Shown: positions 1,947-63,146 of the stretch, in pieces
Layout of the letters: the number at the start of each line of letters is the position of its first letter
How positions within the stretch are numbered: the first letter of the stretch is position 1
Assembly: GCA_947646915.1 (NCBI GenBank)
Contig: CANSII010000006.1
Coordinates: forward strand, 37 to 64,036
Source: an uncultured Clostridium sp.
GTDB taxonomy: Bacteria; Bacillota; Clostridia; TANB77; CAG-508
Direction of reading: 5' to 3'
Length of the DNA: 64,000 bases
Translations under genes and position numbers: made by a program
The notes under the pieces: generated by a model
Databases searched by the model: none
What the model was told of the DNA's origin: nothing
The model's input: the letters and a program-made list of their open reading frames with translations, nothing else

Positions 1947-2055
1947 GGGAAAAATTTGGGAATTGATAAAGTGAATTCTTGTAGATATAATGATACCATC
2001 AAAAAAGTAGATAAGTGCCAAGCAATTGGTGCTTATTTTTTGCACTTTTTTGATG
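1947..2055 (+). promoter_or_regulatory. Promoter module copy 1: GGGAA-N6-GGGAA, TTGATA-N17-TATAAT, leader hairpin and U-tract
   Basis: Boxes at 1947 and 1958, -35 at 1963, -10 at 1986. Hairpin ATAAGTGCC/GGTGCTTAT with G-U pairs, then T6. An outer stem CATCAAAAAAGT/ACTTTTTTGATG is also possible. Confidence 0.7.
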
Positions 2056-2083
2056 TGAAATTTACAAGAAAGGAGCTATAAAG

Positions 2084-3097
2084 ATGAGTGAACAAATACA
2101 GCAGCTTTTTAAAAAAGCATTGCAAAATCGAAATCAGGAGGAAGAAAAAGCACAAGAGGAAAAAAAGAAAGTAGAGGAACTTGAAGAAAATAATTCTCAG
2201 CAAATTCCTGAAGTAAAAGAAGACATTAAAACAATAGAAGATTCTAAAATAGAAGAACCAAAAGTTGAAGAAGATTTAGAAGATAACAAAGAAAAAAGAA
2301 TAATGATAAGTATCGACAAATTAGAAGATTTTCCAAATCAACCATTTAAGCCTTATTCAAAAGAAAAACAAGCAGAAATGATAGAAAGTATCAAAATTAA
2401 TGGTATTATTCAAGACTTAATTGTAAGACCATTACCAAATGGTAAGTATCAAATTTTAAGTGGACACAATAGAAGAGATTGTGCAAAAATAGTTGGACTA
2501 ACTGAACTTCCATGTAAGATTAAAGATATAGAGGATGATGATGCAAATTTGATTTTAATTGATAGCAATCTTATTCAAAGAAAAGACTTTTTTCCTTCAG
2601 AAATGGCAAAAGGGCTACTAATTAAAAAAGAGATTTACAAAAAAAGAAATGTAAAAAGTGATTTCTTTGAAGAAATTGGAAAAGAACAAAATATGAGTCG
2701 AGGAAATATTCAGAGATATTTACGATTAAATTATCTTAATTCAAAACTACTAGAAATGGTTGATTCTAAAGAGATAAATATAAAACTAGGAGAAGAATTA
2801 TCATTCTTAAAAGATGAAGAACAAGAGTTTTTAGCAAGTTTAATTTATCCAAATGTACAAAAATTAACAACTAGTCAAGTAAAAAAACTAAGAGAAGAAT
2901 CAAGTGTTGATAATTTAACAGAAGATAAAATAATAGAAATACTAGAAAAGAAAGATACTGAAGAGAAAGAAAATAAGGGAGAAATTACTTTTTCAAGTGA
3001 TGAATTAAATAAATACTTTAAAGATTTTGGAACAACAGAAGAAATTAAAGAATTTATTATTGTTATGCTAGAAGCATACTTTGGAAATAAGGTGTAA
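2084..3097 (+). CDS. ParB/Srx-like N-terminal domain protein (ParB-like nuclease/partition family)
   Basis: Reads ISIDKLEDFPNQPF...IIQDLIVRPLPNGKYQILSGHNRRDCAKIVGLTELPCKI, a ParB-type GxxRR box. Acidic/lysine-rich N-terminus. Confidence 0.8.
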   Translation: MSEQIQQLFKKALQNRNQEEEKAQEEKKKVEELEENNSQQIPEVKEDIKTIEDSKIEEPKVEEDLEDNKEKRIMISIDKLEDFPNQPFKPYSKEKQAEMIESIKINGIIQDLIVRPLPNGKYQILSGHNRRDCAKIVGLTELPCKIKDIEDDDANLILIDSNLIQRKDFFPSEMAKGLLIKKEIYKKRNVKSDFFEEIGKEQNMSRGNIQRYLRLNYLNSKLLEMVDSKEINIKLGEELSFLKDEEQEFLASLIYPNVQKLTTSQVKKLREESSVDNLTEDKIIEILEKKDTEEKENKGEITFSSDELNKYFKDFGTTEEIKEFIIVMLEAYFGNKV

Positions 3098-3100
3098 TAT

Positions 3101-3547
3101 ATGGCAAGAACAGAAAGAGTAAATGCGGTTGTAACTTCTAAAACAAAGAAGGCATTAGAAAAATTATCTTCTACTACTGGTATATCACAATCAGAAATTA
3201 TAAATATTGCAATTCAAGAACACTTAAAAGTAAAAAGTGCAAAAGAAGATATAAACTTTATAACTAAAGAGATAGATAGGGCAATAGATTCTAAACTAGA
3301 TTCTTATCATAATAGATTATTTAGACTATTAGCAAAAATGACAAAAGCAATATTTACATCTCTCTATATAAATGGTCATATGTTGTCATATATGTGCAAC
3401 AGTAATATTAGTCAAGAATTTTTAAAGAAGGAAATAGAAATAGCAAACAAAAAAGCATATCAAGTTTTAAGAAGTGGATTTTTAGAAGAAGATGTAACAC
3501 AGTTATTTCCTTCTAATTTAAAAGACTTTGATGAGGATAATGAATGA
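3101..3547 (+). CDS. Ribbon-helix-helix-like protein, possible relaxosome accessory factor
   Basis: N-terminus RVNAVVTSKTKKALEKLSSTTGISQSEIINIAIQEHL fits an RHH strand-helix-helix. Stop overlaps the relaxase start (ATGA). Confidence 0.5.
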   Translation: MARTERVNAVVTSKTKKALEKLSSTTGISQSEIINIAIQEHLKVKSAKEDINFITKEIDRAIDSKLDSYHNRLFRLLAKMTKAIFTSLYINGHMLSYMCNSNISQEFLKKEIEIANKKAYQVLRSGFLEEDVTQLFPSNLKDFDEDNE

Positions 3548-61752: not shown

Positions 61753-62622
61753 ATGTGGTTATATTACTGCTTGTTATCAACAGTAATTTGGGGATTTGTT
61801 GCAATCGCTATAAAAAAATGTTCAAATAATGAGCCTAAAAGAATAGCAATAATGGGAATGTTAATTTATCATTGTACTATGATTTTAGTTAGTTTAATTA
61901 TTAATCCACAAATTATTGAGAAATTAAATTTTATAGATATAATTAAAATGTCACCTGGAATTATAATACAATCAATAGGATTTTATTGTTCAATTTCAGC
62001 CATCAAATATGGGAAAGTTGCTATAACATCATCAATACAAAGAACACAAGTAATTGTAACATTTTTGTTAGGCATTTTGATTTTAAAAGAGAAATTTACA
62101 ATCTTACAATTAATAATTTCTGGAATATTAGTTACATTATCTATAATGATAGCAATAGATAAGAAAAATGATGAAGAAAAAATAAATAAGAAAGCAAAAC
62201 AAAAAGCTATAATGTATTCTTGGGGAGTTGTATTATTTTATGGAATTTCAGATTTTATAAATAAGATATATATTACAGAGTATCAAAGTCCATTATATGT
62301 AATGTTCAATTATGCAATAATAATTATAATAGGAATATTTGCATATTGCTTAATAACTAAAAATTGGAATTACATAGATATTAGGAAAATAAATAACAAA
62401 GGATATTTTGTATTACAATCATTATTAGATGTTTCATCTTCAATATTTAATAGATTTGCATTATTAGATGGAAAGGTCTCAATTGTTTCTGTAATTAGTA
62501 CAAGTTCTATTATTATAACAATGCTAGCATCAAGATTAATATTAAAAGAAAAAATAAGTTGGAAGAAATATTTAATAATATTAGGAATATTTATGTGTGT
62601 TTTAGTTTTATCATTTATATAA
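61753..62622 (+). CDS. EamA/DMT-superfamily transporter
   Basis: About 10 TM helices in two homologous halves, typical of EamA repeats. Confidence 0.75.
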   Translation: MWLYYCLLSTVIWGFVAIAIKKCSNNEPKRIAIMGMLIYHCTMILVSLIINPQIIEKLNFIDIIKMSPGIIIQSIGFYCSISAIKYGKVAITSSIQRTQVIVTFLLGILILKEKFTILQLIISGILVTLSIMIAIDKKNDEEKINKKAKQKAIMYSWGVVLFYGISDFINKIYITEYQSPLYVMFNYAIIIIIGIFAYCLITKNWNYIDIRKINNKGYFVLQSLLDVSSSIFNRFALLDGKVSIVSVISTSSIIITMLASRLILKEKISWKKYLIILGIFMCVLVLSFI

Positions 62623-62645
62623 TAAATCCTACACATAAATTATAA

Positions 62646-62720
62646 TGTGCTTTAAAAAATAAAGTCAAGGTTAAAATAAATGTGCTGTTGCACAACCTTG
62701 ACTTTATTTTTTAAAGCACA
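62646..62720. terminator. Perfect 27-bp inverted repeat with a 21-nt loop, flanked by A/T tracts (bidirectional terminator or recombination-related palindrome)
   Basis: TGTGCTTTAAAAAATAAAGTCAAGGTT ... AACCTTGACTTTATTTTTTAAAGCACA, read directly. Confidence 0.6.
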
Positions 62721-63030
62721 TTGTTTTTCAATTAAGAGGATTTAAGGATAAGTATATTTAATTAAGTAGACATAAACACTATTAAAACAGAAAATACCTC
62801 ATTAAAAATGAGGGCAGGAAAGCATGTTTAACATAATAACTATACACATTGAAGGCCAAGCCTTCAAGAGTTAATAAAGAAACAAAAATTTCAAGCAAAT
62901 ATGATGCAGAAATTCACCGAGTGAACTGGCTCAAACCCGCTATTCTTCGTTAAAATTGAAAATAGTGAACTAAAAATTTGAAAAAGTTCACTGAGTGTAC
63001 TTATTAAAATTATATCAAAAATAGAAAATA

Positions 63031-63146
63031 GGGAATAAAAAGGGAATTGATTTTATAAAACTACAATAATATAATAGTAGCATGAAAAGAAAGAGCAAAG
63101 AGATTAGAAAAATTCTAGTTTCTTTGTTCTTTTTCTTTTTCTTTTT
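63031..63146 (+). promoter_or_regulatory. Promoter module copy 9 (upstream of the recombinase operon)
   Basis: GGGAA at 63031 and 63042, TTGATT at 63047, N17, TATAAT at 63070. Hairpin AAGAAAGAGCAAAGAGATTAGAA/TTCTAGTTTCTTTGTTCTTT plus T-rich tail. Confidence 0.75.

Follow-up and report, generated by a model that had tools for sequence, protein, structure and literature searches.

Organization of the locus

The window analysed here is the whole stretch of DNA, 64,000 nucleotides (64 kb). Nine copies of a promoter cassette are located in it. Copies 1–8 belong to a conjugative element of an uncultured low-GC gut Clostridium, and copy 9 lies in a small integrative element of its own, which is inserted at rumA. 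The features are listed below (z, leader folding compared with shuffles).

1–1933, + strand: downstream half of a module-free regulatory cluster, candidate source of the trans-acting factor
1–193, + strand: C-terminal end of a Spo0A-type receiver-only protein
194–679 and 746–1207, + strand: paralogues, novel fold
1209–1406, + strand: stand-alone RNA polymerase alpha-CTD-like protein
1502–1933, + strand: XRE protein
1946–2042, + strand: copy 1, ahead of the ParB-like/RHH/relaxase/T4CP block; boxes 1947–1951 and 1958–1962, -35 1963–1968 (TTGATA), -10 1986–1991 (TATAAT), predicted start about 1998, hairpin 2007–2045 (core 2012–2035), T-run from 2036, z = -4.8
8130–8231, + strand: copy 2, ahead of the TrbL/VirB6, pilin and PrgI block; -35 8147–8152, -10 8170–8175, hairpin 8190–8224, T-run 8225–8231
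11636–11740, + strand: copy 3, ahead of the block with a fragmented VirB4 gene and M23 peptidase; -35 11653–11658, -10 11676–11681, hairpin 11697–11731, T-run 11732–11740
16827–16984, + strand: copy 4, ahead of the XRE (17094)/SSB block; -35 16844–16849 (TTGTTT), -10 16867–16872, distal terminator-like hairpin 16953–16977, T-run 16978–16984
20278–20366, + strand: copy 5, ahead of the block at 20.4–27.9 kb (unknown proteins, sortase); -35 20295–20300, -10 20318–20323 (TATGAT), hairpin 20335–20360, T-run 20361–20366, z = -6.1
26997–27038, bidirectional: non-module terminator-like hairpin between the sortase gene and ORF 27098
27898–28001, + strand: copy 6, ahead of the thioester/SpaA-type adhesin block; -35 27915–27920, -10 27938–27943, hairpin 27959–27992, T-run 27993–28001, z = -7.9
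35585–35686, + strand: copy 7, ahead of the block at 35.8–51.1 kb; -35 35602–35607, -10 35625–35630 (TATGAT), hairpin 35644–35675, T-run 35676–35686
51102–51195, + strand: copy 8, ahead of the block at 51.2–56.8 kb; -35 51119–51124, -10 51142–51147, hairpin 51159–51190, T-run from 51191
62913–62926 and 62987–63000, no strand: palindromic repeats TTCACYGAGTGWAC, upstream of copy 9
63030–63140, + strand: copy 9, heading the small ORF and the large serine recombinase; -35 63047–63052, -10 63070–63075, hairpin 63088–63135, then T-runs, z = -4.8
63152–64000, + strand: small ORF and N-terminal part of the large serine recombinase, the commonest cassette cargo in other genomes

Architecture of the promoter cassette

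A pattern search of the window for GGGAA-N6-GGGAA (GGGAANNNNNNGGGAA) gave exactly nine matches, all on the + strand, with box-pair starts at 1947, 8131, 11637, 16828, 20279, 27899, 35586, 51103 and 63031. The expectation by chance is 0.07, with a maximum of one match in 100 shuffles of the window. All nine positions of the module described in an earlier note were thus recovered, and the modules delimit operon-sized blocks as it had described. The layout A-GGGAA-N6-GGGAA-TTGNNN-17 nt-TAT(A/G)AT is invariant in 9/9 copies. The A before box 1 and the A at position 2 of the spacer between the boxes are constant although the search did not impose them, and the same holds for the promoter part: box 2 abuts the TTG in all copies (-35 variants TTGATA, TTGAAA, TTGTTT and TTGATT), the -35/-10 spacer is exactly 17 bp, and the -10 is TATAAT in seven copies or TATGAT in two. 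Copies 1–3 are the top three sigma-70-type matches (11/12) within the first 20 kb. The identical 20-mer reported for copies 8 and 9, GGGAATAAAAAGGGAATTGA, is present in both. A -10-like TAnnAT is located 3 nt past the -10 in 7/9 copies (binomial 1.7e-11, with the copies taken as independent), and it overlaps the predicted start (-4 to +2).

The gaps between the upstream stop codon and box 1 in copies 1–8 are 13, -1, 3, 13, 1, 18, 7 and -8 nt. Box 1 of copy 2 overlaps the stop codon of ORF 7352–8131, and box 1 of copy 8 sits within the end of ORF 49941–51110. The earlier statement that modules begin within 0–20 nt of the upstream stop, some overlapping it, therefore holds for copies 1–8 (-8 to 18 nt), but not for copy 9, where the distance is 408 nt.

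In 810 kb of sequence, made up of the window and related loci, 114/114 GGGAA-N6-GGGAA sites are fused to a promoter, and alternative box spacings occur only 0–6 times each. Box-pair sites with one mismatch are no commoner than chance predicts (16 found, about 20 expected). A control pattern with one extra base pair between box 2 and the TTG gave only 11 heterogeneous, chance-like matches in the whole metagenome collection. These results indicate that the cassette is a real, non-random promoter architecture heading each operon-sized block of the conjugative element. A description of it was not found in the searchable literature, in agreement with the earlier remark that the motif was not recognised among described regulators.

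The boxes are located at about -51 to -36 relative to the predicted start, one helical turn apart. The -35/-10 spacer sequence is not conserved across cassettes; thus the core promoter has no operator overlapping it. The fixed geometry beside the -35 fits a factor docking next to RNA polymerase, and the cassette very probably serves one shared trans-acting factor. It is quite unlikely that no dedicated factor exists and that host alpha-CTDs instead read the boxes and their A-tracts (AAAAAAGGG twice, with centres around -42 and -53) as a strong UP-element-like or curved-DNA enhancer. The cassette would then be no more than a strong promoter, constitutively active and with a 5' hairpin that stabilises the mRNA, which passes from one mobile element to another. 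The proximal UP-element consensus is AAAAAARNR. The two A-tract-plus-GGG units fit it and coincide with the proximal and distal alpha-CTD subsites, and small-element cassettes have an extra A-run upstream. However, UP elements are A/T-rich and degenerate, whereas the cassette has ten invariant G/A positions and single-mismatch variants are essentially absent. Further, a generic strong-promoter signal should precede rRNA or ribosomal-protein operons, of which there are none among the genome matches listed, and constitutive high expression of recombinases and the whole transfer apparatus would be harmful.

The leader hairpin

Downstream of 9/9 window copies, an intrinsic-terminator-like hairpin with a T-run is present, at about +6 to +53 in eight copies. 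The exception is copy 4, where the first 80 nt have no hairpin and the hairpin and T-run lie at about +75 to +106; the orthologue in L065 has the same distal hairpin. The leaders fold far better than shuffles in 8/9 copies (z = -3.5 to -7.9). Judged from sequence, termination at these hairpins would fall at about +37 to +53 (about +106 for copy 4). The extended stem starts at +1 to +6 and the hairpin at +6 to +10. Thus the RNA ahead of the hairpin is too short to fold into an alternative antiterminator, and any regulation of read-through has to target either the polymerase or the hairpin.

Orthologous copies preserve the hairpin via different or compensating sequences. The stem of the copy 2 orthologue (L057) differs in sequence with hairpin and T-run retained, loop and stem are altered in those of copy 5 (L015, L065), and the copy 6 orthologue (L047) has a different stem. 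Both stem arms show compensating changes for copy 7 (L075), and an unrelated hairpin sequence occupies the same place for copy 8 (L026). The copy 1 orthologue (L105) is nearly identical; the neighbouring proteins there are only 34–61% identical. A promoter, a hairpin and a T-run formally make a complete small-RNA gene, and the cassettes might encode RNAs of about 40–55 nt ending at the terminator and acting, for example, as antisense or decoy RNAs. This is highly improbable, as hairpin sequences are unrelated between copies and orthologues and structure alone is kept. The leader hairpins gave no match in Rfam, and each cassette is immediately followed by a ribosome-binding site and a co-directional operon.

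The gene upstream of copy 9 has its own strong terminator (62660–62706), and the leader terminator of copy 9 is nonetheless kept. Therefore, the hairpin belongs to the cassette and is not merely the end of the previous operon. The + strand terminator-like hairpins of the conjugative element are linked to modules, with the one strong exception at 26997–27038. The hairpin after every copy had been missed in the earlier note, and it moves the likely control point from initiation alone to passage of the promoter-proximal terminator. From these sequence features we tentatively propose, at somewhat less than even chances, that control acts at the leader terminator.

The main rival reading, ordinary control at initiation, is possible but somewhat less likely. 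The boxes would then be the operator of a master activator (class II-like, contacting sigma region 4 or the alpha-CTD) or of a repressor, encoded by the element or the host. The hairpin would do no more than terminate the upstream operon, protect its 3' end and stabilise the downstream mRNA at the 5' end, and locally started transcripts would read through it at a constant rate. Boxes at this position, phased by 11 bp and at a fixed distance from the -35, are what is classically seen with activators. The hairpin is also the only terminator available to the upstream operon because upstream ORFs end 0–18 nt before the boxes, and a stem starting at +1 to +6 would be ideal for 5'-end protection. 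In addition, 4–5 leader families (tyrosine-integrase class D, L038, L072, L098 and the deletion variant L014) have no convincing terminator but keep boxes and promoter intact, so the boxes have a role independent of the terminator. On the other hand, a near-consensus promoter (11/12, 17-bp spacer) hardly needs activator recruitment, and all-or-none conservation in a fixed register is rare for repressor operators. A terminator serving only the upstream operon normally precedes the promoter, whereas the terminator follows the promoter in 20/24 distinct leader families (105 cassettes), even where an upstream terminator is present.

Distribution among mobile elements

The scan of related elements suggested in the earlier note found at least 99 occurrences of the cassette in at least 66 Clostridia MAGs, in most cases heading an operon for a serine or tyrosine recombinase. 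It is used by five or more types of element that are unrelated to one another: at least three serine-recombinase lineages, a tyrosine-integrase type and an FtsK-type island. The 'class A' cassette of copy 9 recurs in about 26 other loci. Its small ORF (63152–63349) encodes 65 aa as listed and 58 aa in relatives, and the serine recombinase begins at 63424 and continues past the window end. The idea of a dedicated element-wide regulon must therefore be given up. Class A and class B recombinase cassettes elsewhere are preceded by arrays of 3–4 TTCACYGAGTGWAC-type sites, and the palindromes are probably a second, element-specific operator layer.

None of the 99 matches listed has a housekeeping gene downstream, and among them cassettes of the conjugative-element type were not seen in most cassette-bearing MAGs. 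The cassette looks like the common on-switch of a mobile-DNA regulon. It may be a portable, gated promoter used by mobile elements in a clade of low-GC gut Clostridia, although we put this below an even chance. For control at initiation, the distribution is a difficulty: with an element-encoded repressor, the recombinase promoters of small elements would be constitutively on in genomes without the conjugative element, and most cassette-bearing MAGs appear to be of this kind among the matches listed.

Alternatively, a chromosomal factor of the clade, such as an AbrB-type transition-state or other global regulator, may read the boxes in response to a cue such as stationary-phase entry or sporulation, and the Spo0A-receiver-like and AbrB-like proteins of the element would only modulate. 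The perfect conservation of the cassette over so many element types and assemblies is in favour of this, as is the finding that the small elements have no candidate regulator in common. The conjugative element also has homologues of two sporulation/transition-state regulators, and the box resembles the AbrB half-site TGGNA with an A/T-rich spacer (PMC3738160). AbrB half-sites are, however, 4–5 bp apart, in any orientation and degenerate, whereas those of the cassette are 6 bp apart, direct and invariant (PMC3738160). In the 810 kb around cassettes, every occurrence of the motif is at the promoter of a mobile element and there is no sign of a chromosomal regulon, a weak test as the sampled DNA is biased towards mobile elements. 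Among the matches listed, housekeeping genes are missing downstream as well, and we consider a host-read signal unlikely.

Candidate trans-acting factors

In the preferred reading, control at the leader terminator, the factor is probably encoded in the regulatory cluster that lies at the left end of the conjugative element and lacks the module. The cluster is conserved in divergent relatives and lies directly upstream of copy 1. It also holds a divergent XRE repressor and a tandem AbrB-like protein (165 aa, two AbrB-like domains), which is encoded there in 3/3 relatives examined. This protein is about 40–99% identical between related elements, and the boxes are invariant. AbrB/MraZ-type swapped-hairpin operators consist, like the cassette, of G-rich pentamers (TGGNA for AbrB, AAAGTGK for MraZ) about one helical turn apart with A/T-rich spacers (PMC3738160, PMC5282649). 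MraZ, like the 165-aa protein, has two AbrB-like domains per chain and binds direct repeats with approximately 10-bp phasing (PMC5282649), which is also compatible with control at initiation.

The earlier note had suggested an OmpR/PhoB-like or other promoter-docked factor. Docking agrees with the fixed geometry, but an OmpR/PhoB-type winged-helix regulator was not found in the window or 10 kb upstream, and the near-consensus -35 is retained. The sole response-regulator-like protein in this region is the Spo0A-type receiver, which has no DNA-binding domain. Among the other binders suggested, the 65-aa RpoA-CTD-like protein does model as an alpha-CTD fold. Binding by the 194/746 paralogues is not supported, because their confidently predicted fold is unlike any DNA-binding fold. 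Of the two XRE proteins, the one at 17094 is not supported either, as it has no conserved counterpart in a related element with copy 4 retained. Neither a NusG/KOW-, Q- or AlpA-like protein among the ORFs scanned nor an FlhC/FlhD-like protein was found.

Proposed mechanism and known systems

We propose that RNA polymerase would bind the cassette promoters readily and that the transcript would stop at the leader terminator, so that the cassette would be off by default. The hairpin would also terminate the upstream operon and block outside read-through; the default state of each block would thus be off and insulated. A dedicated factor with a positive action may dock on both boxes, beside sigma region 4, the alpha-CTDs and the flap/RNA-exit side, and allow the locally started polymerase past the terminator. 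By analogy, the logic would be that of a promoter-loaded antitermination step such as that of Q or AlpA. The read-through mRNAs would carry a fully paired 5' stem-loop and should be stabilised. As the same cassette precedes small-element recombinase operons, these elements would be excised when the conjugative element switches on, as islands are with AcaCD or SetCD. Small elements such as that of copy 9 encode no regulator in the sampled flanks and still need a default-off state where the conjugative element is absent, which is counted for gating. Counted against it, with processive antitermination a single promoter could be enough for the whole element, and eight are present. We know of no antiterminator that loads from upstream of the -35.

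In the systems of lambdoid Q (lambda, 21) and Pseudomonas AlpA, a strong promoter is likewise followed by an intrinsic terminator and then the regulated genes (10.1101/651190, PMC6606751, PMC9371919). They require a sequence-specific DNA element at the promoter (for Q21 two directly repeated subsites, occupied by two protomers), have a -10-like element near the start and are carried by mobile elements. The Q and AlpA elements sit between -35 and -10, adjoining the pause site (PMC9371919, 10.1101/651190), whereas the boxes precede the -35 and the cassette spacer is unconserved. The TAnnAT recalls the sigma-dependent pause elements for Q and AlpA loading (10.1101/651190, PMC9371919). It overlaps the start site, unlike those of Q and AlpA, and lies closer to the start than known sigma-dependent pause elements, which is counted against gating. 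Nine cassettes are present at this locus compared with one for Q or AlpA.

Termination/antitermination control has precedents in Gram-positive conjugative elements (PMC8191782, PMC11658703). In pLS20 (conAn1/conAn2) and Tn916 (terminator T1/canT), terminators shield the conjugation genes of Firmicute elements from spurious or host read-through, and an element-encoded function passes the legitimate transcript (PMC8191782, PMC8955417, PMC11658703). These systems rely on a single antitermination unit that opens one long operon and acts processively on every terminator further down. They have no link to a promoter DNA motif, whereas each operon here has its own promoter, boxes and terminator.

The promoters of AcaCD (IncA/C plasmids) and SetCD (SXT/R391) have no good -35 and need an activator of the FlhDC family, whereas the cassette has a near-consensus -35 and -10. 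As in the cassette, one short motif is located at a fixed promoter-side position before many transfer operons; it also precedes excision/recombination genes of phylogenetically unrelated mobilisable islands, coupling excision to the helper element (PMC4207636, PMC4605294). Master-activator boxes common to a plasmid and unrelated islands thus have a precedent, and the similar distribution and class 2 geometry of the AcaCD regulon (PMC4207636) are in favour of control at initiation. The cassette differs in having a terminator after the start site and in its Firmicutes hosts.

The pho box and OmpR/PhoB-type sites are two direct repeats with 11-bp periodicity on one helix face, adjoining the contact region of sigma region 4, and the cassette is alike. 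The pho box replaces the -35, whereas the cassette retains it. In RK2/RP4, the central control region (KorA-KorB) co-regulates all backbone operons via operators, some of which adjoin the -35 on its upstream side. KorB, a repressor of the ParB family, binds its palindromic operators as a dimer. The cassette differs from these operators in its direct repeats, in the leader terminator and in a motif common to other elements.

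Architecture of the cassette

The nine copies of GGGAA-N6-GGGAA claimed in the earlier note were found at 1947, 8131, 11637, 16828, 20279, 27899, 35586, 51103 and 63031, all on the + strand; only 0.07 copies are expected in the 64-kb window. The claim of an invariant geometry was borne out by the alignment of the copies. The -35 is retained as TTGAAA, TTGATA, TTGATT or TTGTTT, and it lies exactly 17 bp from the -10 in all nine copies. The -10 reads TATAAT seven times and TATGAT twice. The spacer length and the -10 were not imposed by the search, and neither were three further invariant features of the nine copies: the A located 5' of box 1 (the two GGGAA pentamers are called boxes), the A at spacer position 2, and the TTG abutting box 2. 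The sequence of the 17-bp spacer is not conserved among the copies, and the conserved boxes are located at -51 to -36. The top three sigma-70-type matches (11/12) of the first 20 kb correspond to copies 1-3. The closeness to the preceding stop codon was confirmed for copies 1-8, as the upstream ORF ends between 18 nt 5' of box 1 and 8 nt inside the module. The previous stop of copy 9 is 408 nt away. In seven of the nine copies, TAnnAT, often as TGnTAnnAT, is present 3 nt downstream of the -10 and spans -4 to +2 of the predicted start. The usual region of a sigma-dependent pause element is +1 to +15.

In 810 kb, comprising the window and the loci from other assemblies used for comparison (L-numbers), each of the 114 GGGAA-N6-GGGAA sites is joined to TTG-N20/21-TAnnnT; the spacer measures 18 bp at one site, and another site carries three boxes. 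Any box spacing other than 6 gives 0-6 sites in the same 810 kb. Single-mismatch box sites are at the chance level (16 against about 20 expected), with one real variant. As a control, one base was added between box 2 and TTG, and 11 heterogeneous, chance-like matches were obtained in a metagenome collection that is much larger than, and different from, that of the canonical scan. Loci returned by an exact-match search have perfect boxes by construction. According to the relaxed scans and the protein-anchored locus L105, the box invariance is nevertheless real.

The possibility that the boxes form a factor-less UP-like enhancer was considered. This is very unlikely, because the G positions are conserved in an all-or-none manner. 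The boxes are never found by themselves, and in every case box 2 is contiguous with the -35, so a reader of the boxes would have to keep a fixed stereochemical relation to RNA polymerase. Such a relation speaks more for a positive-acting docked factor than for a simple repressor.

Other readings of the motif were rejected by inspection. The sigma-H consensus is RNAGGAWWW-N11-12-RNNGAATWW, which requires a box-to-box distance of 20-21 nt, whereas the distance here is 11-12 nt. For a sigma-B promoter with a GGGTAT-like -10, no GTTTAA lies at the right distance; sigma-B is, moreover, mostly absent from Clostridia. Nor does an ECF-type GGGAAT -35 fit, as the unconserved spacer leaves no conserved GTT/CGT at 16-19 nt downstream. 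The tAGAAAaa found upstream in the cassettes of small elements was rejected as a third box, since it is out of phase (8 nt away, not 11) and is missing from the internal copies. The motif had been called unrecognised, and no description of it was found in the literature with the exact 16-mers and GGGAATTGA as queries, which returned unrelated primer sequences only.

Hairpin and T-run in the leader

A hairpin followed by a T-run, overlooked in the earlier note, is present downstream of all nine window copies. The stems, each with 5-8 T behind it, have 10-22 pairs and a dG of -10 to -24 kcal/mol. For eight copies, the core stem extends from about +6 to +44 of the predicted transcript and the T-run ends at +37 to +53. 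Eight leaders (the transcript starts) fold far better than shuffles, with z = -3.5 to -7.9. The A-run just 3' of the start pairs with the T-run, so the stem of a read-through RNA would start at +1 to +6. The hairpin of copy 4 and one terminator-like hairpin discussed below are as follows.

16953-16977, + strand: hairpin of copy 4, at about +75 to +99
26997-27038, both strands: strong bidirectional predicted terminator of the copy-5 block, flanked by the sortase gene and ORF 27098

The hairpin and T-run are found in 20 of 24 leader families (105 cassettes). The class D leader, which precedes integrase genes, has a weak hairpin and no T-run. L038 and L072 have no convincing terminator, and recombination breakpoints are located directly 3' of their A-runs. 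L098 and L014, from which the hairpin is precisely deleted, are further exceptions. Conservation of the structure was judged on individual folds of orthologous pairs; RNAalifold on the class A leaders (the recombinase-gene class of copy 9) gave no consensus because of indels. Between copy 7 and its orthologous junction in L075, compensating changes are observed in both arms. Stems unrelated in sequence occupy the same place in copy 8 and L026, and in copy 6 and L047; in copy 2 and L057 the stem sequence differs and the position is the same. These comparisons indicate that the hairpin is selected as a structure rather than as a sequence. The unrelated hairpin sequences also contradict the idea that the cassettes are small-RNA genes, which we regard as extremely improbable.

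Copy 9 keeps its predicted leader terminator in spite of the preceding gene having its own, which indicates that the hairpin belongs to the cassette. With one strong exception, the terminator-like hairpins found on the + strand of the conjugative element are linked to modules. The exception is 26997-27038, the only convincing predicted terminator of the conjugative element that is not attached to a module. Thus, ORF 27098-27880 would need read-through or an unrecognised promoter. Other terminator-like matches at about 8.7 and 13.6 kb are inside ORFs and look spurious. No Rfam family was matched in the window, and a tRNA scan found nothing.

The conjugative element

The window has a G+C content of 25%, and its ORFs are nearly all on the + strand. 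Positions 1 to about 56.8 kb correspond, as judged from the sequence, to a Firmicute-type conjugative element. The family scans detected XRE, ParB-like and RHH proteins, a MobA/VirD2-type relaxase, a VirD4-type coupling protein, TrbL/VirB6, T4SS pilin, PrgI, M23 peptidase, SSB, sortase, thioester/SpaA adhesins, and LPD11 and DpnD/PcfM domains. The conjugative element consists of eight blocks, each headed by one copy of the module and syntenic in relatives. No match to plasmids and phages was found in a megablast search with window positions 1-25000. Three genes of the element are listed.

5508-5765 and 5792-6937: split VirD4/TraG-type coupling gene (Pfam profile positions 56-117 and 143-439)
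11767-11958, 11918-12433 and 12534-13385: VirB4-like ATPase gene after copy 3, in at least three ORFs
38178-38717: 179-aa ORF with an N-terminal ribosomal protein S6-like domain (Pfam E = 7.5e-14)

Gene calls in three independent assemblies (L102-L104) give the same 381-aa fragment of the coupling protein. The split coupling and VirB4 genes suggest that this copy of the element may be defective or may carry shared frameshifts. The S6-like domain is an unusual cargo for a conjugative element.

Beyond about 56.8 kb, YebC is followed by a TRAM/tRNA-U5-methyltransferase gene (rumA-like, 57903-59408), and then by GH2, GNAT and EamA genes with their own strong predicted terminator at 62660-62706. 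The last features are copy 9, a small ORF and the gene of a large serine recombinase, which runs off the window.

Distribution and small integrative elements

The full module pattern was scanned in one genome per GTDB species. At least 99 matches were obtained in at least 66 assemblies, which are MAGs of uncultured gut Clostridia/Clostridium from mouse, rabbit, chicken and human. Among the matches listed, two look like chance. The pattern is absent from 2.9 million viral contigs. At syntenic junctions of related elements, cassettes were found in L105, L057, L065, L015, L047, L075, L026, L027 and L093, and these match copies 1, 2 and 4-8.

In most of the matches listed, the cassette is followed by a small ORF and by the gene of a large serine recombinase, of which at least three lineages are present: those of class A are 83-99% identical to that of the window, those of class B about 70%, and those of classes C and E show 30% identity or no BLAST match. 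The class D cassette heads a Tn916-like unit (HTH protein, Xis and tyrosine integrase), and another cassette heads an island with AlbA_2-like and FtsK-like proteins. A short 3' fragment of rumA (59244-59408) recurs directly downstream of serine recombinases in other genomes (L007, L013, L023, L033, L040, L056, L068, L071, L077, L081, L085, L090, L096 and L100), and two or more recombinase cassettes are often stacked beside rumA. The recurrence and the stacking lead us to assign copy 9 to a separate small element in the rumA 3' end. The sequences indicate that the rumA 3' end is a probable hotspot at which small integrative elements accumulate in tandem. The regulon had been considered to be dedicated to the conjugative element. 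This no longer holds, since the element of copy 9 is separate and unrelated elements in at least 66 assemblies share the cassette.

Palindromes were detected upstream of copy 9.

62913-62926 and 62987-63000: palindromes GTWCAC-N3-GTGWAC (TTCACYGAGTGWAC in the window)

Such palindromes form arrays of two to four within the 170 nt ahead of the boxes, in cassettes of classes A and B only (L003, L013, L031, L033, L040, L041, L072 and L088). They are probably a second, element-specific operator layer, or binding sites of the recombinase or RDF.

The wide distribution bears on the origin of the reader. A host-encoded reader of the boxes, for example of the AbrB type, would account for a cassette that is shared across unrelated elements, most of which, among the matches listed, lie in genomes where no conjugative element was detected. 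The sample, which is biased, showed no chromosomal sites; this speaks against such a reader, and we consider it unlikely.

Regulatory cluster and candidate factors

The locus L102, the same element in another assembly, gave the 10 kb upstream of the window, and no module is present in those 10 kb. The genes there encode, in order, 108-aa, 67-aa, 165-aa (two AbrB/SpoVT-type domains), 211-aa, XRE (opposite strand) and 162-aa receiver-only proteins; by eye, the 108-aa protein resembles a tandem RHH. The order continues into the window with the 194/746 paralogues (named by ORF start), the 65-aa protein, XRE 1502 and copy 1. The main features of L102 are as follows.

9513-10001 (C-terminal end = window 1-193): 162-aa receiver-only protein; best matches are Spo0A receiver domains; no output domain
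8059-8556: 165-aa tandem AbrB-like protein with two AbrB-type domains
8021-8033 and 9415-9427: sequence ACAAACTGGGTTT, part of the palindrome TTACAAACTGGGTTTGTAA, 5' of the AbrB-like gene and between the divergent XRE and receiver genes, respectively
3874-4533, minus strand: 219-aa protein, degenerate in its N-terminal half; its Spo0A C-terminal DNA-binding domain scores 41 bits, which exceeds the Pfam cut-off

The cluster of XRE(-), tandem AbrB-like, receiver, 194-like and XRE(+) genes is found again in two divergent relatives. Copy 1 has hardly changed in L105, though the 194-like protein there is only 34% identical; the identities of the 65-aa protein, XRE 1502 and RHH 3101 (also named by ORF start) are 83%, 84% and 92%. 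The ACAAACTGGGTTT palindrome is likely to be the operator of the divergent XRE repressor controlling the cluster. With the receiver and AbrB-like proteins, the mobile element has copies of parts of the two central regulators of sporulation and the transition state; a connection with the host phosphorelay is suggested by this. The 219-aa protein with the Spo0A domain, which may be of the element or of the host, is encoded about 5 kb upstream of the cluster. An OmpR/PhoB-like or other promoter-docked regulator had been suggested for the boxes. The sole receiver protein in the window and the 10 kb upstream matches the Spo0A receiver and has no winged-helix output domain, so the OmpR/PhoB-like suggestion is not upheld. 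In the flanks (8 kb) of the small-element cassettes, homologues of the regulatory cluster are absent, except for XRE in class D.

Candidates for the binder were considered in turn. The paralogues 194-679 and 746-1207 are 44% identical to each other, and their family is tiny (18 clusters at 50% identity among 1.84 billion representatives). The model of the 194 family is confident (pLDDT 93.5). The paralogues were rejected as the DNA-binding output of the receiver, as the model shows no DNA-binding fold and no significant match in PDB or BFVD. Thus, the 194 family is not an evident DNA binder. Each half weakly resembles small phage inhibitors such as T7 Gp1.2. The XRE protein at 17094 was also rejected, because it is not conserved in a related element that keeps copy 4.

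The 65-aa protein (1209-1406) belongs to a narrow family with 75-100% identity, save one 105-aa outlier at 49%. Its homologues in the three contexts examined (L102-L105) are all within this conjugative-element family. The profile aligns over the full length with RNA polymerase alpha-CTD chains at a marginal E of 0.03-0.14, and no alpha-CTD match was given by Pfam. When the AlphaFold2 model (pLDDT 83) is compared with the folds in PDB, alpha-CTDs fill about the first 40 places, at a TM of about 0.8 and an rmsd of 1-2 Å. According to the model, the protein is a free alpha-CTD-like domain with the helix-hairpin-helix fold. The DNA-contact residues of the E. coli alpha-CTD are R265, K298 and S299. 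The corresponding positions of the 65-aa protein are E/K/T/S, Y and E (HMMER alignment to 5vi8_T). The fold is confirmed, but the protein was rejected as an UP-site binder, since the DNA-contact positions are not conserved. With these residues replaced, a protein-protein role as a decoy or adaptor is likelier than UP-element binding.

The tandem AbrB-like protein is present in all three related regulatory clusters, and its two-domain architecture is MraZ-like. It is about 40-99% identical across relatives and is thus far more variable than the invariant boxes. MraZ binds the direct repeats (AAAGTGKN3)3 (PMC5282649). For AbrB, the sites are pairs of TGGNA separated by 4-5 bp, and the spacers are A/T-rich (PMC3738160). 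An operator of the AbrB/MraZ type would have repeated G-rich pentamers about one turn apart and a swapped-hairpin regulator to read them; the spacing here is 6 bp, unlike that of AbrB. The parallel of these sites with (A/T)GGGA-N6 is suggestive. The tandem AbrB-like protein stays a candidate binder.

Comparison with known systems

As in the AcaCD/SetCD systems, one motif at a fixed position is found upstream of several transfer operons, and also ahead of excision/integration genes of unrelated mobilisable elements (classes A-E, the cassettes ahead of recombinase or integrase genes). The promoters of those systems are inactive unless an FlhDC-family activator is present; no FlhC/FlhD domains were detected here in the family scans. 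The cassette system works like the AcaCD/SetCD family and is not a member of it. As in the Q and AlpA systems, a strong promoter is followed by an intrinsic-terminator-like hairpin ahead of the downstream genes. There, the element for the factor lies between the -35 and the -10 by a pause site, whereas the boxes here lie at -51 to -36. No Q- or AlpA-like protein was matched by Pfam or NCBIfam among the ORFs scanned; this absence by sequence is weak evidence, since Q families are very diverse. A pho box likewise has two direct repeats with a periodicity of 10-11 bp. It substitutes for a missing -35, in contrast to the cassette, which retains one. In the processive antitermination of pLS20 and Tn916, the operon start has the conAn1 protein with conAn2 RNA or the cis RNA canT, respectively; the cassette differs from conAn and canT in having one unit per operon. 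Overall, the distribution is like AcaCD/SetCD, the anatomy like Q/AlpA, and the purpose like conAn and canT, and at least one defining feature of each of the three is lacking. We rate the cassette as a regulon mark of mobile elements in uncultured gut Clostridia, in which a promoter-fused motif is combined with a built-in, predicted leader terminator. Of the earlier interpretation, the promoter-docked module has proved real; a regulon private to the element and an OmpR/PhoB-type regulator have not, and the terminator had been missed.

Proposed mechanism

The sequences show the anatomy of the cassette, how strict its geometry is, where it occurs and that the hairpin is conserved as a structure. 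Control may act at the leader terminator, a reading that we hold tentatively and put at somewhat less than an even chance. Four points argue for it. The core promoter is close to the consensus and its spacer is unconserved; in 20 of 24 leader families a promoter is followed by the terminator-like hairpin, in that order; an alternative RNA fold would find no space upstream of the hairpin; and the small elements need an off state without a helper element. The cassette would be off by default and insulated by the terminator. A factor docked on the boxes would allow the locally initiated polymerase to pass the terminator, and the read-through mRNA would then begin with a protective stem. Such promoter-loaded antitermination is the logic of Q and AlpA (10.1101/651190, PMC9371919), and termination and antitermination are increasingly seen in Gram-positive conjugative elements (PMC8191782, PMC11658703). 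Several points stand against control at the terminator: TAnnAT overlaps the start in the seven copies that carry it, the boxes lie upstream of the -35 unlike the binding elements of Q and AlpA, no Q-, AlpA- or NusG-like protein was seen, and some cassettes have no terminator. The cassettes of the last kind are accounted for by ordinary initiation control by a master regulator, for which AcaCD is a precedent (PMC4207636). The hairpin would then be the terminator of the upstream operon and a 5' stabiliser. We consider such initiation control possible and on balance doubtful.

Control at the terminator can be extended to a new, promoter-coupled antitermination of Firmicutes, in which the cassette is a shared excision plug-in of unrelated integrative elements. 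The extended proposal is rather speculative, and we incline against it. The factor on the direct repeats directly 5' of the -35 would be handed to the initiating RNA polymerase, perhaps assisted by the free alpha-CTD mimic and by the Spo0A-type receiver sensing the host phosphorelay. The polymerase would become resistant to the terminator 40-50 nt downstream, and one conjugative element could trigger a whole community of hitchhikers.

Almost nothing is known about how conjugative elements are switched on in anaerobic gut Firmicutes, and cis-elements found by comparison are the main handle because the hosts are uncultured. With its 22 bp and a promoter, the cassette is an exact, searchable marker: in one family of conjugative elements it flags the operons under regulation, and in many small integrative elements, from at least 66 MAGs, the recombinase genes. 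It predicts cross-talk between helper elements and hitchhikers, similar to that of AcaCD/SGI1 in Proteobacteria. Should the leader terminator be the point of control, the cassette would be a new architecture among the few known promoter-loaded antitermination systems, and the role of stand-alone alpha-CTD-like proteins would become testable. Being small and self-contained, it could find use in low-GC Firmicutes as a tightly gated expression part. Three rare natural variants are ready-made mutants for functional tests. L017 has a triple box (GGGAATAAAAAGGGAATAAAAAGGGAATTGA), the orthologue of copy 1 at L057 position 11 has the 18-bp spacer, and L014 is a class A cassette without the leader hairpin.
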